Source of the DNA: Minisyncoccota bacterium
GTDB taxonomy: Bacteria; Patescibacteriota; Minisyncoccia; Phycocordibacterales; BOKC01
Assembly: GCA_030583745.1 (NCBI GenBank)
Contig: CP129473.1
Location: 204,551 to 268,550, forward strand
Direction of reading: 5' to 3'
Length of the DNA: 64,000 nt
Position numbers and translations under genes: made by a program. Below, in pieces: positions 7,652-38,705 of this stretch (position 1 is its first letter; each line of letters opens with the position of its first letter). The notes under the pieces were generated by a model, which was given only the letters and a program-made list of their open reading frames with translations, ran no database searches and was not told the origin of the DNA.

Positions 7652-8197
7652 ATGATTAAAATGGGGGTGTTCAGAATGGGTGGCCTCAATGACACGGACG
7701 TCAGAAGAAAGATTCCACTCAATCAAGCTGTAAGAAGGGAGGTGGTGATCAAGAAAGCTGGAAAAAAAACACAAGAAACACAAGGAGGCAACGTCGACTT
7801 CAACGTCTGGGTGGTGGGTGTCCTACTCAATGTGAAGGATGTCATCCAACCCGGGAGGGACGAAAAGGTCGACATTATCGGGATTACGCCCGAGATGCTA
7901 GGAATTACAGAAGAGGTCGGGCATCAGAGATTCTGCGAGGAGGCAGCAAGGTGCTGTGTTTTTGGAGGGAAGCTCCGTCTCTGCCATCCGGCTTTGGTGA
8001 CAGATATCGCCGAGCAACATCCAGATCTCTGCGAGACGCATACGTTCATTGGAATGAAAGGTGTGAAAGTCCCTAGCGCCCAAATTCCGATGATTCTCGC
8101 CCTCTCAACAGATTCAGTTGGGCAACCGGAAATCGTCTGCGCCTTTGCCACCGACAAGATCGAAACAGGCACAACTGTTCTCTTTGTTGTCGGGTGA
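7652..8197 (+). CDS. hypothetical protein (GC-rich, likely foreign)
   Basis: 181-aa ORF with GC3-rich codon usage unlike its neighbours. A hairpin at 7625-7647 precedes the start and a GC hairpin plus T-run terminator sits at 8226-8260. Confidence 0.4.
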   Translation: MIKMGVFRMGGLNDTDVRRKIPLNQAVRREVVIKKAGKKTQETQGGNVDFNVWVVGVLLNVKDVIQPGRDEKVDIIGITPEMLGITEEVGHQRFCEEAARCCVFGGKLRLCHPALVTDIAEQHPDLCETHTFIGMKGVKVPSAQIPMILALSTDSVGQPEIVCAFATDKIETGTTVLFVVG

Positions 8198-8328: not shown

Positions 8329-8691
8329 ATGCCGAAAGATGAAAAGAAAATACGTAAGCGCCGTAAGCGCGAGTACACGTGGTATGTGGAGCCAACCAGT
8401 CCTCTTGCCAACCTCATCTTGAGCAACATGCTTGATGCCGAAGAGACCTGCGAACAAGTCCTACTACAAGACAACTCGACCCGCAATCTTTGGCGTTGTC
8501 GCAAACACGACCAAATCGCTCTTTTGAGAAAAAACAAAGACGTCAAAGAGGGCAGAGATTTTGTCGTTTATTGTCAGGAAGGAAACGGCAAAATCAAGGA
8601 AGTGTCATTCCCGGCAATCAAGCGCAAAGCGCGTCGGAAGAAAGAAGCCAAACGAGAAGCGAGAGAGCGAAAACAACTAACCCTCTTCTAG
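8329..8691 (+). CDS. hypothetical basic protein
   Basis: 120 aa, Lys/Arg-rich at both ends, GC-richer than the host; terminator hairpin at 8712-8740. Confidence 0.35.
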   Translation: MPKDEKKIRKRRKREYTWYVEPTSPLANLILSNMLDAEETCEQVLLQDNSTRNLWRCRKHDQIALLRKNKDVKEGRDFVVYCQEGNGKIKEVSFPAIKRKARRKKEAKREARERKQLTLF

Positions 8692-11326: not shown

Positions 11327-11379
11327 TCTCAAAACTCCTGATAAATTAAATCTGGAACACGAACAAAAGGAGACACAGA

Positions 11380-11673
11380 ATGAGTCGCGGAACAAAGATG
11401 ACCTGTAAGAACTGCAGTGCAGACATCACAATGGAAGGTGCTCGAATTTGTCGGGTCTGCGATCCTGATCTCAAGGCAATCATGGATAGACAGGTTGACA
11501 GAAATACACCCGAACTATGCAAAAAGTGCTTCGAAATACACCAAGCACAACATGGTGAAGCCACATCAAACAAGCCCCCTGCTGGCGAAAGTCCCTGTCG
11601 AAACTGTGGAAACTGTGAGTTTAACCAGTTTGGAAATTGCCTCCAGTGCGGGGTTGGTCCGCAAATCGGCTAA
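11380..11673 (+). CDS. Cys-rich zinc-ribbon protein (hypothetical)
   Basis: 97 aa with CKNC, CRVC, CKKC, CRNCGNC and CLQC pairs; strong SD AAAGGAG upstream; GC-rich. Confidence 0.5.
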   Translation: MSRGTKMTCKNCSADITMEGARICRVCDPDLKAIMDRQVDRNTPELCKKCFEIHQAQHGEATSNKPPAGESPCRNCGNCEFNQFGNCLQCGVGPQIG

Positions 11674-11835
11674 CTATCGTCGTGCTACCCACCGAAGCCG
11701 GCTGTCCCAACATCCGGCTCTTTTCTTTTTCTAATTTTATGATAATCTGTCGGCAGAATTCAGCCGGACTGTCCGGGTGGATGTAAAATGTTCTCAAAAA
11801 ATAGGAGAGATACTCATGAGTGGAAAGGAATAGTC

Positions 11836-12561
11836 ATGAAGCCAATCATTCCACTGCCAGGAGAAGATCTCCTGGAACTTGGAAAGCGCTGCAATGCGGT
11901 GTATGTGTGTCCGAAGGACGGAGACAGGCGCATCGGACCTCTCGTTGCCTACGCCGGAAAAGACAGCCAGGGGCGGAACCTCGTCGGAGACATCTACTTC
12001 AACTTCCGGCGGATCGAAGTTCACCCGAAAGTAGTCGAGGCATTTGCCGAGGTTGCCTGCCAGAAGCTCTGGGAACAGGGTCGCATCGACTCGTTCGACA
12101 CTGTCTGCGGGATTCCGCAAGGTGGCCGGACGTTCGGTCAAATGCTCGCACTCGTCGCAGACAAGCGTTTCGTGTATGCGGACAAGAAGCCAAAGCCGAC
12201 GGAAACAGGCAAGAAACAGGAATACACCTGGGATTTGTCGCAATTCGATTTTGAGCAAGGTGAACGTGTCGCTATCGCGGAAGACGTTTACAACAACTTC
12301 CAAAATACCGACAGCACCCTGGCCGAGATCGCCGTCACCGGAGCAAACATCGTGCTCCTAGTCGGAGCGCTTAACCGCTCTCTGGTCTACGACAGGACCT
12401 ACACAACAAAAACACTCCAAATCTTGCCCGTCATCGCTTCCATTCGTGAAGCATATCCGGAATTCGAGCAGGACGATCCCGCTGTTGCAGCGGATATTGC
12501 CGCCGGCAACGTCGAGTTCGAGGTAAAGAAGAACTGGGCGAAACTGATGGGGATGCAGTAA
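11836..12561 (+). CDS. type I phosphoribosyltransferase-domain protein (orotate PRTase-like, degenerate PRPP loop)
   Basis: GIPQGG...KK...FEQGERVAIAEDVYNNFQNT aligns to the OPRTase core, but the PRPP-loop TTG is replaced. Start chosen at the ATG after RBS GGAAAGGA; the ORF track begins at 11788. Confidence 0.5.
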   Translation: MKPIIPLPGEDLLELGKRCNAVYVCPKDGDRRIGPLVAYAGKDSQGRNLVGDIYFNFRRIEVHPKVVEAFAEVACQKLWEQGRIDSFDTVCGIPQGGRTFGQMLALVADKRFVYADKKPKPTETGKKQEYTWDLSQFDFEQGERVAIAEDVYNNFQNTDSTLAEIAVTGANIVLLVGALNRSLVYDRTYTTKTLQILPVIASIREAYPEFEQDDPAVAADIAAGNVEFEVKKNWAKLMGMQ

Positions 12562-12650
12562 ACAACACGGGCTGTACATGATGGCCGCCAAACACTTCGG
12601 TGTGAGGCGGCCTTTTTTATATTTTTTCATCAGTTTGATATCATTTCAAA

Positions 12651-13232
12651 ATGTCTAAAGTCCTGTCTCAAGAATTTTTTCAAAGGCCGACGGAAAAGGT
12701 AGCTATTGATTTGCTTGGAAAAGTTTTAGTTAGGAGAATTGGTCGGAAACAAATCGCGGTAAAAATTACCGAGCTTGAAATTTACGACGGTTTTGAAGAC
12801 CGCGCTAGCCACGCTTTCCATGACAAGACCGAACGGAATAAAATAATGTTTGAAGAAGGCGGGCGATTTTATATTTACCTATGCTATGGCATGCATTGGA
12901 TGATAAATATCGTCGTCGGCAAGAAAGATTATCCTTCAGCAATCTTAATTAGAGGCGGAGAAATTGTTTCCAACCTAAAAGCTGACATCTCTACCTCACC
13001 GGCAGGCAAGCAAAATCTGAAAACTAATTTAAACGGACCGGGAAAATTGAGTGGGTTTTTGAAAATAGATAAAAAACTTAATGAAAGAAAAGCGATACCT
13101 AAAAATAAACTCTGGTTTGAAGATCGGGGATTCAAAATTCCTAAAAACAGAACCCAAAGAACTCCCCGAATTGGGATTCATTACGCCGGGCCCATTTGGA
13201 GTAAGAAAAAGTGGCGTTTTGTTGTTAAATAG
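12651..13232 (+). CDS. mpg: DNA-3-methyladenine glycosylase (Mpg/AAG family)
   Basis: FYIYLCYGMHWMINIV motif characteristic of the Mpg family. Confidence 0.85.
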   Translation: MSKVLSQEFFQRPTEKVAIDLLGKVLVRRIGRKQIAVKITELEIYDGFEDRASHAFHDKTERNKIMFEEGGRFYIYLCYGMHWMINIVVGKKDYPSAILIRGGEIVSNLKADISTSPAGKQNLKTNLNGPGKLSGFLKIDKKLNERKAIPKNKLWFEDRGFKIPKNRTQRTPRIGIHYAGPIWSKKKWRFVVK

Positions 13233-13246
13233 TCTTTAATTAATTT

Positions 13247-14281
13247 ATGAGTAAAAAGCCCCTTATATTAATCTCTTTGCTGATTGTCTTCTTTTCGACC
13301 ACATTACTATTTTTTGTGTTTTCAGAAAAAAAAGAGAGAGAGTCTGAAAAACAAAATTTAGAGTGCGCTGATTTTTACTGCTTTGAAAAGCACTATCAGA
13401 ATCTAGTGGAAAAACAAAACATAACCGCGGCTTTTTCCGACCTAAAAATGCAATATGAGAAAGACAATTCTTTGGTCAAAAATTATTGCCATCTTTTGAC
13501 TCACGTCATCGGACGCACGGCGGTTAAAAAATATCCTGATTTGATAGAGGCCTATCGACAAGGAGACCACTTTTGCTGGTCAGGATATTATCATGGTGTA
13601 ATGGAGGGTAATCTCTACAAAACCAAAACAGAAGAATTACCAAAAGTTATAAACGAAATTTGTCAGAAGATTCCGGGTAGAGAAAATTATTCTTTTGACT
13701 ATTACAATTGTGTTCATGGTTTGGGACACGGTGTGATGTATGTGACTAAAAACGAGCTCTTTAAAGCGCTCAAGCTTTGCGACTATTTGGACGGAGCGTG
13801 GGAAAGAGAATCGTGCTATGGCGGAGTCTTTATGGAAAATGTTATTGCTGATTTTGAAAATCACTTTACCGATTATTTGAAACCAGATGAACCGATGTAT
13901 CCTTGCCCCGCTGTGCCGGAGAAAAACAAACATGCCTGTTATCTGATGCAAACTTCTTTTGTGTTAAAAAACAACGGCTATGATTTTGCTGATGCTTTTA
14001 GTGAGTGTCGAAAAGTTGAGGAAAGATACAAGAGAACTTGTTTTCAGAGCTTGGGACGAGATGCTTCCGGACAAACGGTAAGTGATATTAAAAACACAAA
14101 AGACATTTGCCTCATCGGCGAAAACAGTGGCGAACAATTATATTGTGTTATCGGCGCAGCTCGTGATTTTGTATCTTATTTTCATTCTGATAGCCAAGCA
14201 AAGGAACTTTGCACCACCTTCGATTCTGATATCAGCGATGTTTGTTTGAGAGAGGTTGAGAATTATTATAGAAGTTTTTAG
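13247..14281 (+). CDS. membrane-anchored Cys/His-repeat protein (hypothetical)
   Basis: N-terminal TM helix followed by repeated C..H..G(H)G-type units (NYCHLLTHVIG, CWSGYYHGVMEG, CVHGLGHGVMYV, CYGGVFMENV...). Confidence 0.45.
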   Translation: MSKKPLILISLLIVFFSTTLLFFVFSEKKERESEKQNLECADFYCFEKHYQNLVEKQNITAAFSDLKMQYEKDNSLVKNYCHLLTHVIGRTAVKKYPDLIEAYRQGDHFCWSGYYHGVMEGNLYKTKTEELPKVINEICQKIPGRENYSFDYYNCVHGLGHGVMYVTKNELFKALKLCDYLDGAWERESCYGGVFMENVIADFENHFTDYLKPDEPMYPCPAVPEKNKHACYLMQTSFVLKNNGYDFADAFSECRKVEERYKRTCFQSLGRDASGQTVSDIKNTKDICLIGENSGEQLYCVIGAARDFVSYFHSDSQAKELCTTFDSDISDVCLREVENYYRSF

Positions 14282-14288
14282 CTGTTTT

Positions 14289-14338
14289 TGGTCTCATACA
14301 AAACATTCCAATATTCTATAGAATGTTGGAATGTTTTG
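14289..14338. repeat. 50-bp AT-rich near-perfect palindrome (25-bp arms, one mismatch)
   Basis: tcatacaaaacattccaatattcta/tagaatgttggaatgttttgtatga read directly from the sequence. Confidence 0.8.
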
Positions 14339-14347
14339 TATGAAAAA

Positions 14348-14372
14348 CGCCCCCGCGCTTCGCGCGGGGGCG
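14348..14372. terminator. bidirectional intrinsic terminator between convergent genes
   Basis: 11-bp GC stem cgcccccgcgc/gcgcgggggcg with loop ttc; a T-run follows on the minus strand. Confidence 0.7.
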
Positions 14373-14407
14373 TCTGAGGTGCAGTTGAGGGTTGACCCGA
14401 TATGGTC

Positions 14408-14950
14408 TTAGCCCTTGGGCACGAGCTTATCGAAAGCCAGACGAACCGCCCCTCTCTCGTCGTAGTACATAGCAATCACATCAAGGTCAGTCACGCCAGT
14501 GCTCTTGTCGAAGTCCCGCAGATGGCAGATGTTGCCGACTTCGCTCCCCGGAAGAAGTTCCAGCCCACCGCTTGAAGGTCCGAGATGGATGAGCTTGAGA
14601 AAATCGGGATCTGGCATAAAAATGCCGAAAGTGGTAGCATCTTCCGTATCTCCCCGGTGCTCCACCAGCTTGACGAGTCGGCCACGGTTTTGAACCAGAA
14701 GCTTGTGAGCAGCTTCCAGACCAAGTTCCTCTTGCGCTTCACGCAAGAGTGCGGCTTCCTCGTCATCGTCGCCCAGTTCCACCCTGCCGTGGCAAGTTAC
14801 CTGGCAGCCGCCGGGGTAGCTCTCCTTGATCTTGCCATCCGCGAGCTTTTCGGGGTTGAACTTCCCGCGCCGCTGAAGCACCGCAACCACTCCCACCTCG
14901 GGAACTTTAGTCAAAACAACCAGTCCAACACTCCGTTTCTTCTCGGCCAT
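14408..14950 (-). CDS. Nudix hydrolase-like protein (GC-rich)
   Basis: GRVELGD...LREAQEELGL matches the second half of the Nudix box exactly (REUxEExGU), with a one-residue spacing variation in the first half. Confidence 0.55.
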   Translation of the reverse strand: MAEKKRSVGLVVLTKVPEVGVVAVLQRRGKFNPEKLADGKIKESYPGGCQVTCHGRVELGDDDEEAALLREAQEELGLEAAHKLLVQNRGRLVKLVEHRGDTEDATTFGIFMPDPDFLKLIHLGPSSGGLELLPGSEVGNICHLRDFDKSTGVTDLDVIAMYYDERGAVRLAFDKLVPKG

Positions 14951-15096
14951 TTACGGCCTCCTTTTGTACGATCTGCAAACCTCATTCAAGGAAACCACTT
15001 CCTTGAAGTCTAACCAAACATTATCAGAAAGATTTAGATTCTGTCAAGTTTTTTGTAAATTTTTCAAAATTTCGCCACAACTTTTCTCAATTAAAT

Positions 15097-15126
15097 TTAC
15101 TATCATACTATATAGTATGATAGTAA
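15097..15126. promoter_or_regulatory. perfect 30-bp palindrome (15-bp arms) in the divergent Nudix/rarA intergenic region; operator candidate
   Basis: ttactatcatactat/atagtatgatagtaa. Confidence 0.45.
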
Positions 15127-15222
15127 AAAGATTGGGGATAAAATTGGCAGAAGGGGTGAAATAAAGAAGTAAATAATCGAAAAAAGATCGATTTAAAAAA
15201 ACAAAAAAACAGTTGCCATTTT

Positions 15223-15231
15223 TGATATAAT
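15223..15231 (+). promoter_or_regulatory. extended -10 promoter (TGaTATAAT) 9 nt upstream of the rarA ATG
   Basis: tttttgatataatt motif; no SD between the -10 and the ATG. Confidence 0.4.
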
Positions 15232-15240
15232 TATCGGGCA

Positions 15241-16395
15241 ATGCCAGAGCCACTCGCTTCACAAATCAGACCAAAAAACCTTGATGAATTTATCGGCCAA
15301 GGACATTTGGTTGGTAAAAGCGGGCCTATACGCGAAGCAATTGAGAAAGAACATCTTTTCTCTTTTATTCTTTGGGGTCCGCCAGGATGTGGAAAAACTA
15401 CGCTCGCCAGAATTTATTCTAAAAGCTTAGGAGGAGAACTACACGAATTATCTGCAGTCTCTGCGGGAAAGGAAGACATCAAAAAAATTATCGCCCCTAA
15501 ACCCCAGACCCTAGACCCTAAACCCCATATTCTATTTCTCGATGAAATTCATCGCTTCAATAAAGCTCAGCAGGACTATCTTCTGCCATTCGTTGAAAGC
15601 GGGGAATTAACTTTGATCGGTGCTACAACAGAAAATCCGAGCTTTGAAATTATCGCGCCACTTCTTTCACGTTGCCAAGTTTTTGTTCTTGAAAGTTTTT
15701 CAGAAGATGATATGAAAAAAATTCTTAAAAAAACCGGAATGAAAATGCCAAAATCGGCGGAAGATTGGATAATTTCCTATTCTCAAGGCGATGCCCGTCA
15801 AGCAATTTCAATCCTTGATAATACGCAACGGATCTTTAAAAAAATTACACTAGAAAACTTAAAAAATACTGTTCAATCTAAACACCTTCGTTATGATAAA
15901 AAAGGCGACGAGCATTACAACACTATAAGCGCTTTCATAAAATCGATGCGCGCCAGCCAGCCGGATGCCGCGCTTTATTATCTTGCTAAAATGATTGATG
16001 CCGGCGAAGACCCGAAATTTATAGCTCGCAGAATGGTTATTTTTGCCTCCGAAGACATTGGTCAGGCAGCGCCGACCGCGCTTGTGGTTGCCAACGAAGT
16101 TTTTCGCGCCGTGGAAACAATCGGACTTCCAGAGGCACAAATCAATCTTGCGCACGGCGTCGTTTATCTTTCTACCGCCAAAAAAGACCGACGGAGTTAT
16201 GACGCTTATTTCCGCGCTTTGGAAGATGTAAAAAAATATGGTAATTTGCCGATTCCAAAAAATATTTTGAACGCGCCGACAAAATTAATGAAGGATTTAG
16301 ATTATGGAAAAGGTTATGAAAAATATCCGCCAGACGACGGAAAGAAAAGCTATCTACCCGAGAAATTAAAAGGTAAAAAGTATTTGAAGTATTAG
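15241..16395 (+). CDS. rarA: replication-associated recombination protein A (AAA+ ATPase, MgsA/RarA)
   Basis: Walker [22 protein letters not shown] and a C-terminal MgsA domain; contains an unusual [12 protein letters not shown] insert. Confidence 0.85.
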
Positions 16396-16541
16396 TGGTA
16401 AAAATTAATCGACGTCACAAAATTGTGCTATATTGGAAGATGGAAAGTCCCTCTTCGTCTTTCTTGCCAATGCCCGTGTTCAGAACGACAGGTAAATATA
16501 CTGATACAAAGCACACCACAAACTAAGAAGGAGAAGACAAA

Positions 16542-17471
16542 ATGACGACCGCAGAGACCGGAGTGACGGCTCTGCCGTCGTCTCGTTCCACAAGACTAGG
16601 AGTTTTGTTCTTCGTCATTGCCCCACTCGTCGGCCTGATCTTGGCGATCTGGCTCTCTTGGGGGCGCGGGGTTTACGCCCTCGACATCATCCAGCTCGTC
16701 TTCTGGCACTCTATCACTGGACTGGGAGTGACAGTCGGTTTCCACCGACTCTTCACTCACGCTTCATTCAAGACCTACTCTCCGGTGAAAGCTACGCTAG
16801 GAATCTTGGGCTCAATGACAGCCCAAGGAAACTTGTTCCAGTGGTGCGCCGTTCACATGAAGCACCATCGCTATAGCGATGGAGAAAACGATCCACACTC
16901 GCCTCATGCTTACGGAGAAGGATTTTGGGCGGTCTCTCGCGGATTCTGGCACGCCCATGTTGGATGGCTCTTCTCCCATGACATGCCGTCCTCGGAAATG
17001 GAGAGGATGACGAAAAAGTTAAGGAAAGAGCGCCTTCTCGTCTGGATCGACAAACTCTTTCTCCTTTGGGTCGCCCTAGGACTTCTGCTTCCGACTCTCG
17101 TGGGCTGGCTTTTTGTCGGCACATGGGAAGGAGCTTTCCGTGGTTTTCTCTGGGGTGGAATCATCCGAATAGGAACGGTACATCACGTGACTTGGAGTAT
17201 CAATTCCGTCTGCCATCTTTGGGGGCGGAAAGATTTCCAAAGTGAAGACCAGAGTCGCAACAACTGGATCTTCGGCCTCTTGGGTTGGGGCGAAGGTTGG
17301 CACAACGGCCACCACGCTTTCCTCTGGTCTGCCAAGCACGGTCTTCTACGCGGACAGATGGACCCTAGTTGGTGGATAATCAAAGGCCTGGAATGGCTGG
17401 GATTGGCTTCGGGCATCAGAGTTCCTGAAGCCAATGCAATTCAGGCAAAGCGAAAACAACAAAAAGAATAG
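16542..17471 (+). CDS. acyl-lipid/acyl-CoA (delta-9 type) fatty acid desaturase
   Basis: Three His boxes (HRLFTH, HMKHHRYSD, HNGHHAF) and TM segments; GC3-rich codons; strong SD AAGGAG; terminator 17480-17516. Confidence 0.8.
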   Translation: MTTAETGVTALPSSRSTRLGVLFFVIAPLVGLILAIWLSWGRGVYALDIIQLVFWHSITGLGVTVGFHRLFTHASFKTYSPVKATLGILGSMTAQGNLFQWCAVHMKHHRYSDGENDPHSPHAYGEGFWAVSRGFWHAHVGWLFSHDMPSSEMERMTKKLRKERLLVWIDKLFLLWVALGLLLPTLVGWLFVGTWEGAFRGFLWGGIIRIGTVHHVTWSINSVCHLWGRKDFQSEDQSRNNWIFGLLGWGEGWHNGHHAFLWSAKHGLLRGQMDPSWWIIKGLEWLGLASGIRVPEANAIQAKRKQQKE

Positions 17472-17479
17472 GGAACTCA

Positions 17480-17516
17480 ACCCGCGCTACCAACTGGAGC
17501 GCGGGTCTTTCTTTAT
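17480..17516 (+). terminator. intrinsic terminator after the desaturase gene
   Basis: acccgcgct/agcgcgggt 9-bp stem followed by ctttctttatc. Confidence 0.7.
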
Positions 17517-17612
17517 CTGAACTTTGAGGAAATAATTTTGGGTTAATTTTCTTTTTCTTTAGAAAACCTATGCTTTCAAGCGCCGTAAATGATAGAATTC
17601 TATTAAAATAAA

Positions 17613-18221
17613 ATGACAAGAAATTTTCTAAAAATTGAATTCTTCAAAAAAACAGACGTAGATTATCTGCGAGAACTACGTAGAATGATCGTTTTTTCAT
17701 CGTTGCTTTTTTTATCTTCGGCTGTTTACGGATTTTTTTTCATTTTTCTGCATCCCGAATCCTCACAAAGATTTTTAGAAATTTTTACCGAACTTTCAAG
17801 AAAAATAGTTGACTTAAAACAACACGAGCTGACAATTTTGATTTTCTTTAACAATGGCTTTAAAATCGCCATTTTAATTTTCCTGGGGATTTTATTGGGA
17901 ATTGCTCCAATAATTTTTTTGACAGCAAACGGCTTCTTACTTGGAGTCGTAGCTTTTATGACGCAATCTGAAAATGGTTGGGCAATTTTCTTGAAAGCCA
18001 TACTGCCTCACGGAATTTTTGAAATCCCAGTTTTAATAATTGCCGGCGCTATGGGTCTTGAGCTCGGAAAATCTTTTATAAAATTCCTGAACGGCGAGGA
18101 CGTCTTGATAGCAGAATCTAAATTAGCATTTAGTTTTTTTGCAAGAATTTTGTTGCCTCTTTTGCTTTTTGCGGCTTTTGTAGAAGTTTTCATCACAAAA
18201 ACTATGATTATTTCTGGATAG
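17613..18221 (+). CDS. SpoIIM/DUF95-like integral membrane protein
   Basis: Multi-TM protein with ILPHGIFEIPVLIIAG typical of the stage II sporulation M-like family. Confidence 0.4.
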   Translation: MTRNFLKIEFFKKTDVDYLRELRRMIVFSSLLFLSSAVYGFFFIFLHPESSQRFLEIFTELSRKIVDLKQHELTILIFFNNGFKIAILIFLGILLGIAPIIFLTANGFLLGVVAFMTQSENGWAIFLKAILPHGIFEIPVLIIAGAMGLELGKSFIKFLNGEDVLIAESKLAFSFFARILLPLLLFAAFVEVFITKTMIISG

Positions 18222-18259
18222 AAACACTCATGTATAAGATATGATAATATGTTCTAAAA

Positions 18260-20953
18260 ATGACTGATTGGTATAAAAAAAATTTAGAGACAATCACAAA
18301 GGAATTCGGTGTAAATCAAGCATTTGGTTTATCCAAAACAGAGGCCGATGAACATTTGAGAAGATACGGCCCAAATAAACTTCCAGAATCAAAACCAGAT
18401 GGTTTATTTGTTATATTTTTTAGACAATTCCAAAGTCCTTTAATTTACTTACTTTTAGCCGCATCGGTTCTGGTAATGTTTTTAGAAGAATGGATTGATG
18501 CCGGAATCATAATTTTTGTTCTTTTATTTAATGCTATAGCTGGAACCGTACAGGCTGGTAAGGCTCAAAACACTCTATTAGCTCTAAGAAAATTTACCGA
18601 GACCAACACCACCGTTTTACGTGACGGTAAAGAAATAATCTTGCCGGACCAAGAAGTGGTCCCAGGTGACATTCTTATTCTACAAGAAGGCGACAAAATT
18701 CCGGCTGATGCCAGAATAATATCTGCCCATAACTTAAGAATTGATGAATCCGCCTTTTCCGGCGAATCTTTACCTTCAAGTAAAACTACCGAAATCTTAG
18801 AAGAAGAAAATTTATCACCAGCTGAACAAAAAAATATGGTTTTTAAAGGAACGCATATTGTTGGTGGAAATGGAAAAGCGGTGGTTGTAGCTACAGGTTT
18901 AGATACAGAGATAGGAAGAATTTCCGAAAAAATAAGTGAGATAAAAACTGAAATTCCACTCCAAAAAAATATCAAGAATCTCTCAAATTTGATAATTATA
19001 GTAGTGTTAGTTGTTAGCTCTCTTATTTTCTTTCTTGGCTTATTGACCGGAAAAGCAATTGAGGAAATTTTTCTCTTGTCGGTGTCTATAATAATTTCTG
19101 CCGTTCCGGAAGGTCTGCCAATTGTTATTACCCTGCTTTTGGCAACTGGGGTTTGGCGTATGAGTAAGCGCAATGTTTTAATTAAAAAACTTCAAGCTGT
19201 TGAAGCACTCGGCCAAGCACAAATTATTGCCGTAGACAAAACCGGCACACTGACAAAAAGTCAGTTAGTGACGCAAAAACTATATCTCGGCAGTGAAGAA
19301 AACTTTTCAATTACCGGTGTTGGTTATGATTCAGAAGGAGAAATCACATTCCAAGACAAAAAAATTTTTCCGGAAGATAATCCGCTACTCAAAAGAGCAG
19401 GTTTAATCGCCGGTCTTTGCTCAAACGCTAAAATTTTCAAAAAAGATGGCAATTGGAAGATTTCTGGAGATCCAACAGAAGCAGCGCTTTCAATTCTAGC
19501 GGTAAAAACTGGCTGGCCGATAAAAAAACTAGAAGACGATTTTCATCAAATAGCAGAAATTCCTTTTGATTACAAACTAAAATATCACGCTGTCCTACAT
19601 GAAATAGAAGGTAAAAAAATTATCTTTATTTCTGGCGCGCCGGAAATTATTCTAAATTTGTGCAAAAAAATAAAAACTAAAAACAAAGAGGAGGTGCTTG
19701 AAGAAGAAAAAAGAAAAGAAATACTTGATATTTTTTCAAGAATGTCAAGTGAAGCTTTGCGAGTTTTAGCTTTAGCCGAAAAAAATACGGATAAAGATTT
19801 TCTAGAAAAAGAAGATATCACGGATCTAACTTTTGTCGGACTTTGTGGAATGAAAGACGCTTTACGCGAAGAAGTCCCGGAAGCTATGGCAAAAACCCGT
19901 GAAGCCGGGGTCAAGGTGGTGATGATCACTGGTGACCACAAAATTACTGCGGAAGCCATTGCAAAAGAAGCCGGAATTTGGAAAAAAGGAGATAAAATCT
20001 TAACCGCTGAAGAACTAGAAAATTTACCAAAAGAAAAGCTGGCAGAGATTTTACCGGAAGTTTCAGTTTTTGCCAGAATCACTCCGGAAAACAAATTGAA
20101 GATAATTGAAGCTTATAAATTGCGTGGAGAGACGGTCGCAATGACCGGAGACGGAGTAAATGACGCCTTGTCTTTGGTAGCGGCAGATCTTGGAGTATCT
20201 ATGGGCAAAGGTGGTACTGAAGTCGCCAAGGAGGCCTCCGATTTGGTTTTACTGGATGATAATTTCGGTAGTATCGTCTCGGCGGTGGAAGAGGGTAGAA
20301 GCATTTACCGAACTTTAAGAAAGGTTTTACTTTATCTTTTTGCTACTAGTCTGGGAGAAATTATGGTCATTGCCGCCGCCATGCTTATGGGCCTACCCTT
20401 GCCAATTTTAGCGGCACAATTGATTTGGTTGAATTTAGTCACCGACGGCTTTTTGGATGTTTCGCTGGCTATGGAACCAAAAGAAAAAGATATTCTGAAA
20501 GAAAAATACAAAAAACCGAATCGGTGGATTTTAAATAGCTGGGATTTGCAAAGGATGATTTTAAACGCCTCAACTATGGCAATAATTTCTATTTTACTTT
20601 TTATTTATTTCTTGGACAATTACAGCTACGAACACGCACTTTCAATTTCTCTGACAACAATGGCGGTCTTCCAATGGTTTAAAGCCTGGATTTGTCGCTC
20701 CGACCACCTTTCAGTTTTCCAAATAAATCCTTTTTCAAACAAATACCTTTTGGGTGCAACAGGCATTGTGGTCATCTTACAACTTCTTGCCCTCCATACT
20801 CCATTTATGCAAAACATCCTACGACTAACCCCGCTTAGTCTAAACGAATGGATTTTGATTATTTCAATCTGCCTTACCGGAGTTGCAATAGATGAAATCA
20901 GAAAAATGTTCTATCGAAAATTTGAAATGAAAAAAAATCTTGTTCAGATATAA
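18260..20953 (+). CDS. cation-transporting P-type ATPase (Ca2+-ATPase-like, P2 type)
   Basis: 897 aa with DKTGTLT phosphorylation site, TGDGVNDA hinge, TGES and about ten TMs. Confidence 0.9.
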   Translation: MTDWYKKNLETITKEFGVNQAFGLSKTEADEHLRRYGPNKLPESKPDGLFVIFFRQFQSPLIYLLLAASVLVMFLEEWIDAGIIIFVLLFNAIAGTVQAGKAQNTLLALRKFTETNTTVLRDGKEIILPDQEVVPGDILILQEGDKIPADARIISAHNLRIDESAFSGESLPSSKTTEILEEENLSPAEQKNMVFKGTHIVGGNGKAVVVATGLDTEIGRISEKISEIKTEIPLQKNIKNLSNLIIIVVLVVSSLIFFLGLLTGKAIEEIFLLSVSIIISAVPEGLPIVITLLLATGVWRMSKRNVLIKKLQAVEALGQAQIIAVDKTGTLTKSQLVTQKLYLGSEENFSITGVGYDSEGEITFQDKKIFPEDNPLLKRAGLIAGLCSNAKIFKKDGNWKISGDPTEAALSILAVKTGWPIKKLEDDFHQIAEIPFDYKLKYHAVLHEIEGKKIIFISGAPEIILNLCKKIKTKNKEEVLEEEKRKEILDIFSRMSSEALRVLALAEKNTDKDFLEKEDITDLTFVGLCGMKDALREEVPEAMAKTREAGVKVVMITGDHKITAEAIAKEAGIWKKGDKILTAEELENLPKEKLAEILPEVSVFARITPENKLKIIEAYKLRGETVAMTGDGVNDALSLVAADLGVSMGKGGTEVAKEASDLVLLDDNFGSIVSAVEEGRSIYRTLRKVLLYLFATSLGEIMVIAAAMLMGLPLPILAAQLIWLNLVTDGFLDVSLAMEPKEKDILKEKYKKPNRWILNSWDLQRMILNASTMAIISILLFIYFLDNYSYEHALSISLTTMAVFQWFKAWICRSDHLSVFQINPFSNKYLLGATGIVVILQLLALHTPFMQNILRLTPLSLNEWILIISICLTGVAIDEIRKMFYRKFEMKKNLVQI

Positions 20954-21353
20954 AATGGAAAGTTTTATTCTAAAAATTCAAAATAATATCTGGTATTCGA
21001 TTATAATGGTTTCCCTAGCATTTTTTAGTATCGGGTTGTTGTCTTACGAACTTTTTTATCCGGGAGTGACAGAACGCGGTCATTTTCTGGCCAGAACTAC
21101 TGACCTGATAATCGCCTACATATTTCTAGCTGATTTTTTCGCCGGACTTATTTTTACAAAAGGCCTAAAAGGTCGGGGAGTTTATTTAAAAAACAACTGG
21201 CTCAATTTAGCTTCTTCTATCCCAATCACAAATGATTTCGCCAGGACTTTCCGCCTATTGCGGGTTTTTAGAGCACTTCGCATCATCAGAGCTTTTATGA
21301 ATTTAGAATTTGCCGAACAAAGACAAAAAACGGTCAACAAAAATCACAAGTAA
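20940..21353 (+). CDS. standalone voltage-sensor-domain (S1-S4) membrane protein
   Basis: Four predicted TM segments. The last, RLLRVFRALRIIRAF, carries Arg at every third position (S4-like). Overlaps the ATPase stop; alternative start ATG at 20955. Confidence 0.5.
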   Translation: MFRYKMESFILKIQNNIWYSIIMVSLAFFSIGLLSYELFYPGVTERGHFLARTTDLIIAYIFLADFFAGLIFTKGLKGRGVYLKNNWLNLASSIPITNDFARTFRLLRVFRALRIIRAFMNLEFAEQRQKTVNKNHK

Positions 21354-21465
21354 GATCAATAAAAAAATCTTGTCTGAAGATACATCCCATGCTATAAATG
21401 TCCCCAGAAAAGGCGGATTGTCCGCTTTTGTTTTGCACACCTGTTCCTTGAAAAGGAAATAAGCG

Positions 21466-22536
21466 ATGACAACAATGACGCGTAAGTTTGACATTTCGAA
21501 CCCTTTTGGTGCCGTCTGGGGAGCTTCGGGAGTTCAGGGATTCTTCGGGGAGGGATATCCTTTTCACTCCATACTCAAAAGATTCTGTCCGGGCTTTTTG
21601 CTTCGGATATCCTTTGTGGCGAAAACTGCCACTCTCGACTCAAGACCGGGAAATATGCCTCTTAGCGGCATCACTCCGACAGAACGTTTACCGAAATGTG
21701 TTTGGGCAAGCCACCGGAAGGGGATTGCCTTAAACGCCGTCGGACTCTCGAACCCGGGGCTGGAAGCTCTTCTACTCGGAAAGTTCAAAGGTGTTCCGCA
21801 GACATGGCAAGAAAGAGACAAGCCCTTCCAGATTTCGATCATGTCCACAGCTCAAACCTCCGAAGCTCGACTTCGGGAGACAAAAGACATGTTGGGCTTG
21901 ATCGGCAGATGCGCTACGGACTTCCAATCCGAATTCGGAATTCAAATCAACATCTCGTGTCCGAACGTCAGCATGAGCCACCGCTCAAATGAGGACACGG
22001 TGAATGAGACTCTGGCAACTCTTGACCTCGCTAAAGATAGCGCGCCTGGAATCAGGATCATCGTGAAGCTCTCACCGACTTTCCCGCCGGAGTCCGTTCA
22101 TCAAATTTCCCGACACCCAGCTTGCTGGGGTATCGTCATGGGCAATACAGTCCCGTGGCGAAGTCCAATCCCGTGGCTCCTTGAAGAATCTGGGTTACAA
22201 ATCAACTGGGATGATCTCTTTGGCAAGGATGAAAAGTCACCACTTCAAAAGCGTGGCTTAACGCAAGCTGGTGGGCTGTCAGGCAGACCGCTTCTGCCAA
22301 TCATCTGCGAATGGATTCAGCGAGCGCGCGGGTCTGGAGTTCAATGTCACCTGAACGGCGGAGGAGGAATCCTCCACCCGAAAGATGTGTGCCGGGTCTT
22401 TGACGCTGGCGCTGATTCTATCTCTCTCGGTTCAATCGCCTTCCTCCGCCCGTGGCGTTTGGCAGAGTGTATCACCGAGTCGCATCTTAAGATGTTGAGG
22501 CGTTTTTTCGAACATGGACATGGAGCAACTGACTGA
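21466..22536 (+). CDS. dihydroorotate dehydrogenase-like (PyrD family) TIM-barrel flavoenzyme
   Basis: ALNAVGLSNPGLEAL, QINISCPNV, GGLSGRPL and GGGGI...AGAD motifs of the DHODH/DHPDH family; GC-rich. Confidence 0.7.
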   Translation: MTTMTRKFDISNPFGAVWGASGVQGFFGEGYPFHSILKRFCPGFLLRISFVAKTATLDSRPGNMPLSGITPTERLPKCVWASHRKGIALNAVGLSNPGLEALLLGKFKGVPQTWQERDKPFQISIMSTAQTSEARLRETKDMLGLIGRCATDFQSEFGIQINISCPNVSMSHRSNEDTVNETLATLDLAKDSAPGIRIIVKLSPTFPPESVHQISRHPACWGIVMGNTVPWRSPIPWLLEESGLQINWDDLFGKDEKSPLQKRGLTQAGGLSGRPLLPIICEWIQRARGSGVQCHLNGGGGILHPKDVCRVFDAGADSISLGSIAFLRPWRLAECITESHLKMLRRFFEHGHGATD

Positions 22537-22546
22537 CGAGACGTTG

Positions 22547-22576
22547 CCCCCGCTCTGATATCTATCAGAGCGGGGG
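22547..22576. terminator. 14-bp perfect GC hairpin between the pyrD-like and pyrC-like genes (no U-tract on + strand)
   Basis: cccccgctctgata tc tatcagagcggggg. Confidence 0.5.
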
Positions 22577-22612
22577 CGGAAAAAAACGACACACCAAAAA
22601 GAAGGGGTTAGA

Positions 22613-23665
22613 ATGGTAACCAAAAAAATTGATGTTCCTCCACTCGTTGACATGCATGTCCACCTGCGGGAAGGAGCGGGTCTGATCAAAGACCTTCTCC
22701 AACTCCACGTCGCTGGAGGTGCAGATGTCCTTGGCATGATGCCAAATACCACGGAAGGTCTGACAACTGCAAAAGCGGTGCACGACTACCACAAACAAGT
22801 AGTCAATCTCATGATCGGACCGGAAAGGCAGATTACTCCAGTTCCGTTTCTGATGATTACGCCCGAGACGACCACCGACGACATAAGGAGGGCAGCTTCA
22901 GAAGAGATCAGGAATGCGAAGCTCTACCCCTTGGGACGGACAACAAATTCCAACAGGGGTATCCGAGACTACGCCAAACTCCTGCCAATAATCAGAATGT
23001 GTGGGGAACTTGATGTGTTCTGTCACTTCCATCCAGAGCATCCTGACATGCTCTTTGACAACAGAGACGCCGAGTACGTCTTCCTTCCTCTCGTTGACAT
23101 CTTCCTACGCGAAACCAACGCCAAGATCGTCTGGGAACACGGCACTGACGCGCGTTGCATCCCGTTCTGGATAGATATGGCAGGCACCCACAGATTCTTC
23201 GTCACCCTAACTGCTCATCACCTCGCGACAGACGAAGATGATGTCTTCGGCGACGTGCGTGCTATCTGCAAACCACCGATCAAAACCAGACGAGACTGTG
23301 CCGATCTCCGAGCGCTGGTTGCCAAAAATTACTCTTGGGTGATGGCCGGCACTGACAGTGCTCCACATCCAAGAAAATCCAAACATGTCTCGGATGGCAG
23401 ATGCGCTTGTGGCGCTTTCACTGCACCTTTTGCCTTACCTCTCTACGCTCACGCTCTAAATGACTTGCTCCAAACTCCGGAAGGGGTAGAGGCCTTCGTC
23501 AATTTCACGAGCCGCAACGCTCGAAGTGTTCACAGATTGCCAACAACAACCAGAACGCGAGCTCTCGTCTGTGAACCTTTCAAGGTTCCGGATCAATACG
23601 AGGTTGGAGACTGGTCAATCGAACCGTTCTGGGCTGGTCAGAAAATCAGATGGACACTCATCTAA
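22613..23665 (+). CDS. dihydroorotase-like (class II PyrC type) amidohydrolase
   Basis: VDMHVHLREG, KLYP and GTDSAPH motifs shared with E. coli-type PyrC; GC-rich; terminator 23700-23745. Confidence 0.7.
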   Translation: MVTKKIDVPPLVDMHVHLREGAGLIKDLLQLHVAGGADVLGMMPNTTEGLTTAKAVHDYHKQVVNLMIGPERQITPVPFLMITPETTTDDIRRAASEEIRNAKLYPLGRTTNSNRGIRDYAKLLPIIRMCGELDVFCHFHPEHPDMLFDNRDAEYVFLPLVDIFLRETNAKIVWEHGTDARCIPFWIDMAGTHRFFVTLTAHHLATDEDDVFGDVRAICKPPIKTRRDCADLRALVAKNYSWVMAGTDSAPHPRKSKHVSDGRCACGAFTAPFALPLYAHALNDLLQTPEGVEAFVNFTSRNARSVHRLPTTTRTRALVCEPFKVPDQYEVGDWSIEPFWAGQKIRWTLI

Positions 23666-23954
23666 CGACGACTCGTTGATTAATTCATCGCTTGATCCTT
23701 ACCCAGCTCCGCTGATCCCAGCGGAGCTGTTTTCTTTTTTCAAAAAATAAGTAAAATATTGATTATTAAATAGGGGGCCCTTAGCCCCTCACATGCAAAA
23801 GAATATGTACTATGTCTAAGCATTGAAAAGTGAGAAAGATAATAGTATATACATAGGGTACACAAATAATCTGAAAAGGCGCTTGGTAGAGCATAACGAT
23901 AAGAAAAATCTATCAAACAAACACAAAGCACCTTTTCAGCTTATTTATTACGAA

Positions 23955-25571
23955 TCATATAAATCTCAAAAGGATTCGTAATAGTTTAAGCATGTGAGGG
24001 GCCATTAGCTCATTTGGTAGAGCGCGCCCATGGCATGGGCGAGGCGACCGGTTCGAATCCGGTATGGTCCACCCGATTGAATTTCCCCGCAAAAATGCGT
24101 CCGCGCTCCGCGCGGTGATGGGAAGTTCGGCAAGAAAAGAAAAGGGCGTTTTGAAATCCACGGAGAGCGCGCTTGCGCGCAAATGGCGGTTCGAGCCGAT
24201 GGTTTTCAAAAAAGTTTTCATTTCCTCAAACTTTTTTGAAGAAGCGAGATTTTGTGCTTGGTTGGCTTGTAAAATCCAGTTTCGCACGAGTTCGAGCCAA
24301 TGATTTCCTTTTCGCTCAAAATCAGATAATTTTTCCTCTAGCGTTTTCTTTTCCGACATCAAAGCGTTCTTTTTCTGTTGAAACTCCGACAACTCAAAAC
24401 CGCCATCCAAGTATCCATCCATGAGGCGGTCAATCTTTGCTTTGATGTCAGAAATAGAAGAACGCAGATTTTGAGCGAAAACTCCCGATGATTGGCGGTT
24501 CTCTTGTTCCCATAGGGCGAGCTTGCCGAGATATTTGTCTCGCCATTCATCGGGCAAAGAAACCTTTTGACAAAGTTCCTGCACTTGTCGTTCAAATTCT
24601 TCTTCCCGCAAAAATTTATTTTCAGAACATTTAGCAATTTTGCTCTTGTGGGTACAGCGATAGTAAATAAACTGCAAACCACTTTTTTTGATATGTCTTT
24701 CGGCAGTTATCGCATAGCCACATTCCCCACAAGTAGCAAAATTTAGAAACTGAAAATTCTTTTTCTTTTGATTTTTGCGGGGTTTTCCATTTGCGACAAG
24801 TGCCTCCTGTATCTTGTCAAAAAGTTTCTTTGAAATCATTGGCTTGTGCGAACCTTGATGCACTTCGCCTCGGTAAGAAAAATATCCATAGTAAAAAGGA
24901 TTTTTCAAAATATGTTCTACCGAGGCGAGTGCGAAAGGTTTGCCAGATCGTGCGCCAACCAAGCCAAGAGAAAACATTTTGCGTTGAATAGCCGTGAGTG
25001 TATATTCGCCAGTGCTAAAAAGCTCCAATACTTCTTTTATTTTACGAAACGTCTTTTTGTCTGGTTCAATCGTTCGAAGTCGCGGTTCGTTAAAATAACC
25101 GATTGGAGCTTTTGCCGATAATTCACCACGGCGTATCTTTTGCCGTATCCCACGCAAAATGTTTTCTCTTAAATTGTCGGTGTAATATTTTGCTTGTCCG
25201 AAAGCGACACTCAACATAAATTTTCCTTGGGGTGTCGCTTCGAACCAAAATGTCGGGAATTTTAGCGCAACAATTTTTAGCGTGTCCACAAAATATATGA
25301 CCTTGCCACCATCAATGCTATTTCTCGCCAAACGGTCTGGATTCCACGCTAAAATTCCCGAGGCAGAACCTTTTTCAATTTCGCCAAGCATTTCGTTAAA
25401 TACTTCACGACCAGGCTCTTTGGCCGTTTTACTTTCATAATACTCACGAACAACAAATAACCCATTTTGCTTGGCGTATTCCCGAAGCTCATGAAGTTGC
25501 GCCTCAATACTCAAAACTTGGCGTTCTTCGTCCTCACTTGATTTTCTACAATATATAAAATATTTGATCAT
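23955..25571 (-). CDS. large serine recombinase (resolvase/integrase family with recombinase domain and zinc ribbon)
   Basis: N-terminal YCRKSSEDEERQ...SIEAQ catalytic-Ser motif, recombinase domain, CGECG...C zinc ribbon and a coiled-coil tail. The ORF has no stop until it has read through IR1-L and the antisense of tRNA-Ala, so the true C-terminus is uncertain. Confidence 0.8.
   Translation of the reverse strand: MIKYFIYCRKSSEDEERQVLSIEAQLHELREYAKQNGLFVVREYYESKTAKEPGREVFNEMLGEIEKGSASGILAWNPDRLARNSIDGGKVIYFVDTLKIVALKFPTFWFEATPQGKFMLSVAFGQAKYYTDNLRENILRGIRQKIRRGELSAKAPIGYFNEPRLRTIEPDKKTFRKIKEVLELFSTGEYTLTAIQRKMFSLGLVGARSGKPFALASVEHILKNPFYYGYFSYRGEVHQGSHKPMISKKLFDKIQEALVANGKPRKNQKKKNFQFLNFATCGECGYAITAERHIKKSGLQFIYYRCTHKSKIAKCSENKFLREEEFERQVQELCQKVSLPDEWRDKYLGKLALWEQENRQSSGVFAQNLRSSISDIKAKIDRLMDGYLDGGFELSEFQQKKNALMSEKKTLEEKLSDFERKGNHWLELVRNWILQANQAQNLASSKKFEEMKTFLKTIGSNRHLRASALSVDFKTPFSFLAELPITARSADAFLRGNSIGWTIPDSNRSPRPCHGRALPNELMAPHMLKLLRILLRFI
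23999..24071 (+). tRNA. tRNA-Ala (anticodon GGC), CCA not encoded
   Basis: GGGCCAT acceptor with G3:U70, anticodon stem CGCCC/GGGCG with loop ATGGCAT, T-loop TTCGAAT. Confidence 0.8.
24069..24192. repeat. IR1-L: 124-bp arm, perfect inverted copy of 25690-25813
   Basis: Base-by-base reverse-complement identity read from the sequence; begins within the last 3 nt of the tRNA. Confidence 0.9.
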
Positions 25572-25689: not shown

Positions 25690-25813
25690 GAACCGCCATT
25701 TGCGCGCAAGCGCGCTCTCCGTGGATTTCAAAACGCCCTTTTCTTTTCTTGCCGAACTTCCCATCACCGCGCGGAGCGCGGACGCATTTTTGCGGGGAAA
25801 TTCAATCGGGTGG
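25690..25813. repeat. IR1-R: 124-bp arm, inverted copy of 24069-24192
   Basis: Direct comparison; ends in tcgggtgg, overlapping the start of IR2-L by the 5-nt GGTGG. Confidence 0.9.
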
Positions 25814-38285: not shown

Positions 38286-38705
38286 CTAAATCTTAACGCC
38301 TTCTATTATTCTTTCTATTTCTTTCCCCCCAATCATTCTGGCTTTTTTGCCGACAATTTTAAAACCACCGTATTCTTTTGGATTGTGAGAAGCTGTAACC
38401 ATCGCACCGCCAACCGCTTTGAAATAATTAACTAAAAAATAATACATCGGCGTAGTAGAGAGCCCCACTATTTCAATCTTAAATTTTTTTTTGGTCTGCG
38501 TTGTCGTTTTTTGGAACCCATTAAGAAAACTCTTGAATAGCTTCTTCGAGCTTAAACGCGCGTCGTAAGCAACAACAAAAGTTCCGCTTGCAAAATACTT
38601 AGCGCAGGTTTGGCCAATAACAAAAGCGGTTTTTTCGTCTAATTCAGACGGATAAACACCTCGAATATCGTAAGTTTTAAATATTTTATTGTTTATTTGA
38701 GACAT
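38286..38705 (-). CDS. phosphoglucomutase/phosphomannomutase, domain I fragment (N-terminal part of a split gene)
   Basis: 139 aa with the TASHNP active-site Ser loop; ends at TAG with domains II-IV following in another frame. Confidence 0.75.
   Translation of the reverse strand: MSQINNKIFKTYDIRGVYPSELDEKTAFVIGQTCAKYFASGTFVVAYDARLSSKKLFKSFLNGFQKTTTQTKKKFKIEIVGLSTTPMYYFLVNYFKAVGGAMVTASHNPKEYGGFKIVGKKARMIGGKEIERIIEGVKI

Follow-up and report, generated by a model that had tools for sequence, protein, structure and literature searches.

Putative late pyrimidine-biosynthesis genes of divergent families in a Minisyncoccota genome

Bacteria that belong to the candidate phyla radiation (CPR), or Patescibacteria, are commonly portrayed as incapable of nucleotide synthesis, and the occurrence in such a genome of genes resembling those for pyrimidine biosynthesis raises the question whether these genes are working parts of a pathway or stray fragments of one. 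We address this question for a stretch of 64,000 nucleotides, hereinafter the window, from the Minisyncoccota bacterium assembly GCA_030583745.1 (contig CP129473.1, positions 204,551 to 268,550 of the forward strand; coordinates below are positions within the window). Three genes in the window encode proteins similar to dihydroorotate dehydrogenase (DHODH, the product of pyrD), class II dihydroorotase (DHOase, the product of pyrC) and orotate phosphoribosyltransferase (OPRTase, the product of pyrE); the last of these is referred to as the phosphoribosyltransferase (PRTase)-like protein. An original prediction, made from the nucleotide sequence alone, had described the three genes as GC-rich members of an incomplete pathway, with salvage, catabolism or recent acquisition as possible explanations.

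The evidence presented below leads us to the view, held with a probability of roughly 0.7, that the three genes are divergent patescibacterial versions of pyrC, pyrD and, judging by context, pyrE, which provide functional steps 3–5 of uridine monophosphate (UMP) synthesis. In the proposed scheme, the DHOase would make dihydroorotate, the class 1 DHODH would convert it to orotate, and the PRTase-like protein would make orotidine monophosphate (OMP) from orotate and phosphoribosyl pyrophosphate (PRPP), with pyrF, the gene for OMP decarboxylase, presumably located elsewhere in the genome. The pathway, on this view, is an ordinary one with divergent enzymes.

Identity of the three proteins

The open reading frames (ORFs) are all intact and are found where the original prediction placed them, together with the motifs VDMHVHLREG, KLYP, GTDSAPH, GIPQGG and EDVYNNFQNT that it quoted from the translations (Table 1). 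The pyrD-like and pyrC-like genes form a two-gene unit with its own terminator, and the PRTase-like gene is solitary, 9 kb upstream. All three proteins are members of large patescibacterial families, and their named homologues come from Patescibacteria/CPR or from unclassified bacteria.

Table 1. Coordinates of the pyrimidine-type genes, the associated hairpins, the strain-variable tract and the other genes of outlying composition in the window
Feature	Position	Strand	Remarks
PRTase-like gene	11836-12561	+	start MKPIIP supported by the family (26 homologues begin there); longest ORF from 11788
pyrD-like gene	21466-22536	+	divergent, predicted class 1 dihydroorotate dehydrogenase, "long" Patescibacteria subtype
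pyrC-like gene	22613-23665	+	divergent, predicted class II dihydroorotase, "type W"
Perfect 32-nt GC-rich palindrome	22546-22577		between pyrD and pyrC; -31.6 kcal/mol, z = -6.8
Intrinsic-terminator-like hairpin with T-run	23704-23739	+	ends the pyrD-pyrC unit; 11-pair stem, 8 GC pairs, then TTTTCTTTTT
Strain-variable tract relative to L048	21494-23681		pyrD mosaic, pyrC replaced (blastn and sliding-window identity)
NUDIX hydrolase	14408-14950	-	GC3 outlier
Membrane fatty-acid desaturase	16542-17471	+	GC3 outlier
ORF without family hit	7652-8197	+	GC3 outlier, beside tRNA-Pro
ORF without family hit	8329-8691	+	GC3 outlier, beside tRNA-Pro

The pyrC-like protein is matched in NCBIfam by 15 models, all of them DHOase models, the best being TIGR00856 (pyrC_dimer) at 184.8 bits, under the equivalog cut-off of 292.95, and a search of the PDB with a profile built from 30 homologues retrieves class II DHOases over their whole length (E ~1e-44). 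Residues H15, H17, R19, N45, K103, T110, H138/H140, H176, D248 and H252 are invariant among these homologues. The ligands of the binuclear zinc center (H15, H17, K103, H138/H140, H176 and D248) align to those of structure 5vgm, T110/T111 of the Thr-Thr mobile loop are conserved, and R19, N45 and H252 presumably correspond to Arg20, Asn44 and His254 of the Escherichia coli DHOase, which hold the substrate carboxylate. The protein thus retains all of the metal-binding and substrate-binding residues of class II DHOase, and the predicted reaction is the interconversion of carbamoyl-aspartate and dihydroorotate. The protein is collinear over its full length with the homodimeric, E. coli-type class II PyrC (TIGR00856; 1j79, 1xge, 5vgm), and the two share the HxH motif, the Lys of KLYP that is carboxylated, another two His, the Asp, the carboxylate-binding Arg, Asn and His, the TT loop and a length of ~350 aa; however, they are only ~25% identical, and the window protein belongs to a separate Patescibacteria clade with ~55% internal identity. 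We label this clade "type W", as distinct from the canonical "type K" pyrC that is likewise present in Paceibacterota.

For the pyrD-like protein, the Pfam domain PF01180 (DHO_dh) is recognized at 53.1 bits, against a gathering threshold of 27, whereas none of the NCBIfam DHODH models (1A, 1B, archaeal, class 2) is passed, the best score being 55.8 bits against a cut-off of 269. Its sequence profile retrieves the B-type enzyme (DHODB) with E = 1e-21 (80 bits) and dihydropyrimidine dehydrogenase with E = 3e-4 (23 bits). The AlphaFold2 (AF2) model, with a predicted local distance difference test (pLDDT) score of 93, is ranked by Foldseek closest to PyrD of the Lactococcus lactis DHODB, followed by class 1A enzymes, and the best-ranked structures are all DHODHs. 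Because DHODH structures match best and dihydropyrimidine dehydrogenase matches only marginally, we assign the protein to the class 1 type of DHODH and not to PreA. Across 39 sequences, K53, N90, N162, C165-P166-N167, K201, N227, G269-L271-S272-G273 and G300-G301 are invariant. With the class 1 DHODHs (L. lactis DHODB PyrD, 1ep3, and the fumarate-dependent class 1A) the protein has in common the TIM-barrel FMN fold, the catalytic Cys, carried by an S-C-P-N loop, and the conserved Lys, Asn, GLSG and GG motifs; it differs from them in its low identity (~22%), an N-terminal extension, the lack of an adjacent PyrK gene and an insertion of ~25 residues (PWRSPIPWLxE...) ahead of GGLSG. The conserved residues and the model are consistent with a class 1, FMN-dependent DHODH with a cysteine base, which would oxidize dihydroorotate to orotate.

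These assignments bear on the possibility that the two adjacent genes are a catabolic or reductive pair, with a PreA/dihydropyrimidine dehydrogenase-like enzyme and a hydantoinase or dihydropyrimidinase, or that they serve orotate fermentation. Both reactions are reversible in principle, and both proteins are divergent and score under the equivalog cut-offs. Nevertheless, DHODH is favored over dihydropyrimidine dehydrogenase by ~57 bits, even if no curated 1A or 1B cut-off is reached, the pyrC-like protein matches DHOase models and no hydantoinase models and keeps the carboxylate-binding residues, and the linkage to pyrF and to the PRTase-like gene described below points to the biosynthetic direction. 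A catabolic pair, one of the roles listed in the original prediction, accordingly appears highly improbable.

The PRTase-like protein is the most divergent of the three with respect to curated profiles. The window protein has no Pfam match, PF00156 is matched weakly by 15 of its 27 relatives, and the pyrE models (including TIGR00336 and TIGR01367) give at most 28 bits, against cut-offs of 107-245. The AF2 model (pLDDT 74) has the type I phosphoribosyltransferase fold, and its top Foldseek matches are the OPRTases 4ohc, 4paw and 9e5g (E 4e-8 to 1e-7, TM score 0.5-0.6). The core fold is shared with PyrE of Burkholderia cenocepacia (4ohc) and Helicobacter pylori (HP1257, 4paw), as are the acidic ED pair after a hydrophobic strand and a Lys-rich flexible loop, and the GIPQGGR sequence is retained at the position of the diphosphate loop. 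The protein differs from PyrE in a length greater by ~30 residues, owing to extensions at both termini, in its exceptionally high conservation and, above all, in the 5-phosphate loop, which reads V-x-N-N-F-[SQ]-[TN]-T in the PRTase-like family as opposed to V-x-T-[TS]-G-x-[TS] in PyrE. The loop of the window protein (AIAEDVYNNFQNT) aligns gap-free to EDIITTGKSA of the H. pylori OPRTase 4paw, with the acidic pair retained and TTG replaced by NNF.

The original prediction had regarded this loop as degenerate and had taken it to suggest a changed or lost activity. The homologues, which are 75-88% identical across many Paceibacterota, argue otherwise: close relatives have EDV[YF]NNFQNT without exception, and a profile search against 1.84 billion representatives (E <= 1e-10) yielded the family signature EDVxNNF[SQ][TN]T, with the consensus EDVxNNFSTT, in 307 clusters at 50% identity, most of them of ~250 aa. 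Because it is conserved both in the close family and throughout these clusters, the loop represents a conserved alternative and not decay, and in this family the NNF[SQ][TN]T sequence takes the place of the usual TTG phosphate-binding loop. Apart from this point, the three enzyme-like assignments of the original prediction are upheld by the profiles, the PDB searches and the structure models, which place the proteins at the level of superfamilies.

Gene neighborhoods and the extent of the pathway

The identity of the PRTase-like family is illuminated by its genomic context in other Patescibacteria. In 32 of the 40 distinct metagenome loci that extend far enough in both directions, the immediate neighbor of the PRTase-like gene is a gene for OMP decarboxylase, usually 0-4 nt downstream. 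The same adjacency is seen in the related loci L045, L046 and L131, and the L045 decarboxylase scores above the pyrF cut-off of TIGR01740. The complete order pyrD-pyrC-PRT-pyrF is seen as an operon in L045, L052, L053, L054 and L111. In two proteins, P0486 and P0493, an N-terminal OMP decarboxylase domain is fused to the PRTase-like domain, both at full length; P0478 has the same layout with a sub-threshold decarboxylase match, and P0466 includes only the C-terminal part of the decarboxylase domain. By analogy, these fusions mirror UMP synthase; the PRTase-like gene thus either lies between pyrC and pyrF or, in the manner of UMP synthase, is fused to OMP decarboxylase.

A parallel picture is obtained for type W pyrC. 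It adjoins a DHO_dh homologue in 25 of 32 GTDB loci, lies near an OMP decarboxylase gene in L017 and L020, and is part of a DHO_dh–type W–PRT(weak)–OMP decarboxylase array in one JGI contig (P0033). In Paceibacterota, pyrC is found paired with no fewer than three subtypes of DHODH and, because the gene combinations mix freely, the variants can be regarded as interchangeable parts of one pathway. The other conserved neighbors of type W pyrC (holA-like, polA, tsaE, pilB-like, DoxX and SpoU) are housekeeping genes to which no pathway meaning is attached.

The same observations weigh on the alternative that the PRTase-like protein is not an OPRTase and instead uses another base or ribosyl donor or is a PyrR-like regulator of pyr genes. 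The non-canonical PRPP loop, the 28 bits to the pyrE models and lack of a Pfam match, the moderate structural similarity to OPRTases, the identity of 75-88%, unusually strong for a metabolic enzyme, and the separation from the other pyr genes in the window are all compatible with such a role; yet the family is found where pyrE would be expected, with pyrC before and pyrF after it, and directly adjoins pyrF in 80% of the loci, its fusion with OMP decarboxylase has the composition of UMP synthase, and the acidic pair, the GIPQGGR position and the Lys-rich flexible loop are all in place. We consider a function other than OPRTase unlikely. Most likely, the PRTase-like protein is the CPR OPRTase, a pyrE analogue that would make OMP from orotate and PRPP.

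How much of the remaining pathway is encoded nearby? The statement of the original prediction that pyrB, pyrF and carAB are missing from the window agrees with our searches of the 64 kb. A tblastn search with three PyrF sequences from Patescibacteria detected no OMP decarboxylase; none of the reading frames of the window contains both motifs of the aspartate/ornithine transcarbamoylases (ATCase/OTCase), the pyrB search being based on motifs only; and carB is absent, the only ORFs of more than 800 aa in the window being a P-type ATPase and an 805-aa ORF that by eye is LeuRS. The sequences around the solitary PRTase-like gene (11327-11835 and 12562-12650) contain no remnants of pyrF, pyrC or pyrD according to tblastn, blastn and tblastx.

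These absences are the basis of the alternative that we take most seriously, under which the enzyme assignments stand and only the starting point of the pathway differs: a lineage devoid of carAB and pyrB would use pyrC, pyrD, pyrE and pyrF to turn carbamoyl-aspartate, dihydroorotate or orotate from the host or community into UMP. In addition to the lack of ATCase and CarB in the window, no ORF with both ATCase motifs is found in ~1.2 Mb around the pyrC, pyrD and PRT genes of relatives, the conserved pyrD-pyrC-PRT-pyrF module lacks pyrB, and complete pathways of de novo nucleotide synthesis are reportedly missing from most Patescibacteria. On the other side, bacterial pyrB and carAB genes are often located apart from the remaining pyr genes, so that their absence from a neighborhood says little, the window covers 9% of the 692-kb genome, and the ATCase search was motif-based only. 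Furthermore, salvage by way of imported carbamoyl-aspartate is not known to be an established route. Such a truncated pathway is a real possibility, albeit one that we hold to be somewhat less probable than not.

Several findings weigh against an ordinary, functional UMP pathway and keep our confidence in it well short of certainty. All three proteins score far under the curated equivalog cut-offs (56 vs 269 bits for the pyrD-like protein, 185 vs 293 bits for the pyrC-like protein and 28 vs 150 bits for pyrE), the canonical PRPP-loop residues are lacking in the PRTase-like protein, and the activities of these families are predictions from sequence, models and context. The PRTase-like gene of the window has no pyrF beside it or anywhere in the 64 kb, and the lack of ATCase-like ORFs in the related loci suggests that the pathway may be truncated. 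For the DHODH, neither a partner resembling PyrK nor any other electron acceptor was detected: in the window, pyrD is flanked by the gene for an Ion_trans protein and by pyrC, and no partner gene recurs beside pyrD in 36 loci, no PyrK profile having been run on the whole window. Finally, according to KEGG annotation in a 2026 preprint, 93% of Patescibacteria genomes are without de novo nucleotide pathways.

The same preprint describes the nucleotide-synthesis genes as phylogenetically scattered in Patescibacteria. A scattered distribution fits a patchy, exchangeable module, and it equally fits under-annotation of divergent families. The homologues of the three proteins are nearly all named "hypothetical protein" at NCBI, several of the JGI names are enzyme names, and a full-text literature search returned general statements on missing nucleotide synthesis and no description of these patescibacterial pyrC, pyrD and pyrE families.

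Replacement of pyrC and the GC contrast

The relationship between type W and type K pyrC can be followed at the level of strains. L048 is a near-identical relative with the gene order of the window. Amino acid identity to the window is 95.6-99.4% for RarA, the desaturase, SpoIIM, the ATPase and the Ion_trans protein, but only 77-79% for PyrD and 24-26% for PyrC. Nucleotide identity to L048 is ~99-100% until ~21,490 and forms a 61-92% mosaic through pyrD; there is no nucleotide similarity over 22,604-23,681, after which identity returns to 86-97%. The pyrC of L048 is of type K and passes the TIGR00856 cut-off of 293 with 297.1 bits, as does that of L045 with 301 bits. Type K pyrC is 76-81% identical among L045, L048 and L049, the last being a more distant syntenic relative (flanking proteins 62-79% identical, synonymous sites largely diverged from the window) in which type K pyrC occupies the same position. 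Because this more distant relative also has type K, type W is probably the incoming allele in the lineage of the window. No other single observation argues as strongly, in our opinion, for type W being a working DHOase as the in situ exchange of a canonical pyrC for it.

The left edge of the tract without similarity to L048 coincides with the palindrome between pyrD and pyrC (Table 1), a GC-rich hairpin without a U-tract that had been correctly spotted in the original prediction and that is followed by a run of A. The palindrome is 100% kept in L048, in an otherwise diverged spacer, is absent from L049 and is found in the species of the window only. It was rejected as a terminator on both strands: on the plus strand an A-run follows it, on the minus strand a T-run precedes it, and it does not appear in the terminator scan. 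It might instead be a recombination edge or an RNA element. Elsewhere in the region, patches of 71-92% identity at 15998-16297 (RarA) and 16798-16997 (desaturase) interrupt the 97-100% identity to L048, which suggests frequent small recombination tracts in the population.

The GC-richness of the three genes, emphasized in the original prediction, is borne out by the GC content of third codon positions (GC3), which is 0.653 for the PRTase-like gene (z = 5.6), 0.543 for pyrD (z = 3.5) and 0.544 for pyrC (z = 3.5), relative to a mean of 0.359 (standard deviation 0.053, maximum 0.464) for 49 other genes of the window. The steps in GC fall at gene borders. A chimeric assembly was ruled out as the source of this mosaic, which is recovered at 99.9% identity in independent Logan assemblies of other sequencing runs, and a search for integron-like or repeated flanks of the GC-rich genes gave no shared repeat, just hairpins beside individual genes. 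Four further genes are GC3 outliers (0.54-0.62; Table 1).

A similar composition is observed in relatives. The PRT genes have a GC content of 0.53 +/- 0.03 over flanks that range from 0.33 to 0.58 (slope 0.15), and that of the pyrF genes is 0.55 +/- 0.04. In 34 of 37 loci, the GC content of type W pyrC exceeds that of the flanks; the surplus is 10 points for flanks below 0.42 and 2.5 points for flanks of 0.50 or more. The syntenic desaturase, pyrD and pyrC genes of both L048 and L049 likewise stand out by their high GC content from the same AT-rich backbone. The desaturase gene is inverted in L049, and the slot of the NUDIX gene is occupied there by a different GC-rich gene (HTH). The pyrD genes of the window and L049 are 67% identical at the amino acid level and 42% at fourfold-degenerate sites, a divergence close to that of housekeeping genes, with both at GC3 0.54-0.59. 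Because pyrD has diverged as the housekeeping genes have and yet keeps its GC3, a simple recent arrival fails to account for the contrast. The GC excess is a trait of these gene families in low-GC hosts and is not peculiar to the genome of the window. The contrast might stem from repeated horizontal exchange with a GC-richer pool or from GC-biased gene conversion at recombining loci, possibly from both. For the PRT genes, identity at fourfold-degenerate sites is 49-67%, compared with 28-51% for longer housekeeping genes, which were taken at a different host distance.

The small ORF 11380-11673 upstream of the PRTase-like gene is a native gene with a syntenic homologue in L049. The PRTase-like gene together with the adjacent 3-methyladenine DNA glycosylase (MPG) gene (11836-13232) is absent from the syntenic site (L049 1935-2292), which lies between the small ORF after FBA and a 344-aa protein without assigned function. 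Another strain, L130, whose PRTase-like protein is 95% identical, preserves the order of the window, FBA–small ORF–PRT, up to the contig end.

It could be argued from these data that the three genes are foreign or decaying fragments, acquired recently and standing outside metabolism, with a PRTase-like protein that does not bind PRPP or is inactive. The outlying GC3 values, the exchange of the pyrD-pyrC cassette between near-identical strains, the absence of the PRT-MPG block from the L049 site and the tRNA-Ala and serine recombinase genes just downstream of the cassette (see below) would all be in line with such an origin, but decaying genes would hardly have intact reading frames, invariant catalytic residues and an unusual loop conserved over hundreds of clusters, and pyrD, the desaturase and the GC contrast persist in place in the diverged L049, the GC excess being family-wide. 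Genes outside metabolism are, in our estimation, improbable. The suggestion of recent acquisition made in the original prediction holds insofar as the pyrD-pyrC cassette has been exchanged between near-identical strains; it does not hold for pyrD and the GC contrast, which are present at the same position in L049.

Returning to the interpretation of the genes as functional, we tentatively envisage a broader picture that goes beyond the window and that we would at present not back at even odds. Paceibacterota may maintain late pyrimidine genes at ~50-55% GC whatever the GC content of the host, trading them between lineages as cassettes, of which the DHOase swap between the window and L048 would be an instance, with their GC content kept by recombination (GC-biased gene conversion) and not by recent arrival; the OPRTase step may be carried out by an NNF[SQ][TN]T-loop lineage of more than 300 clusters at 50% identity, which would bind PRPP through this loop in place of the near-universal TTG loop; and, most of these proteins being named "hypothetical" at NCBI, the capacity of the CPR for pyrimidine synthesis may be under-called.

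Features around the genes and significance

Several features of the window, mostly in the vicinity of the pyrD-pyrC unit, deserve mention in their own right. Just downstream of the unit lie tRNA-Ala(GGC) (23999-24073) and a gene for a large serine recombinase with Resolvase, Recombinase and Zn-ribbon domains (23955-25571, minus strand). The recombinase gene is flanked by a perfect 124-nt inverted repeat (arms 24069-24192 and 25690-25813), the left arm of which starts within the 3′ end of tRNA-Ala(GGC). Located at a tRNA gene and directly 3′ of the swapped cassette, the repeat and the recombinase look like an invertible or mobile module. Just past the recombinase, the segment 26347-28915 has a very low GC content (0.31-0.34; GC3 0.20-0.26), and the translations of its three ORFs resemble a Dam-type methyltransferase, a protein of the restriction-endonuclease kind and an N4/N6 methyltransferase, respectively; the segment probably represents a mobile restriction-modification island. 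The 212-bp stretch 23786-23997, located after the pyrC terminator and before tRNA-Ala, is exactly what the same-strain assembly L003 is missing and is thus a strain-level insertion or deletion. It contains a mini-ORF of 52 codons (23823-23981, plus strand) that, by eye only, recalls the GIY-YIG nuclease motif (SIYIGYTNNLKRRLVEHN).

Farther away, a 50-nt near-perfect palindrome (14294-14343) is located between the ORF 13247-14281 and the NUDIX gene, and a 32-nt AT-rich palindrome (15096-15127) upstream of RarA; both could be bidirectional terminators or recombination sites. The minus-strand ORFs 37354-38229 and 38286-38705 appear from their translations to be two halves of a phosphoglucomutase/phosphomannomutase and may represent a split or frameshifted gene.

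These results point to a module of pyrD, pyrC, the NNF-loop PRTase and pyrF that is widespread, is missed by curated profiles and is mostly annotated as "hypothetical" at NCBI, so that annotation-based reconstructions may under-count the late steps of UMP synthesis in Patescibacteria. The NNF-loop family would be a natural experiment in PRPP binding by type I phosphoribosyltransferases, and the swap of the DHOase type between strains offers a clear-cut example of isofunctional gene replacement within a reduced genome. The GC contrast that persists in these genes, in turn, is a usable test case for distinguishing gene transfer from biased gene conversion.

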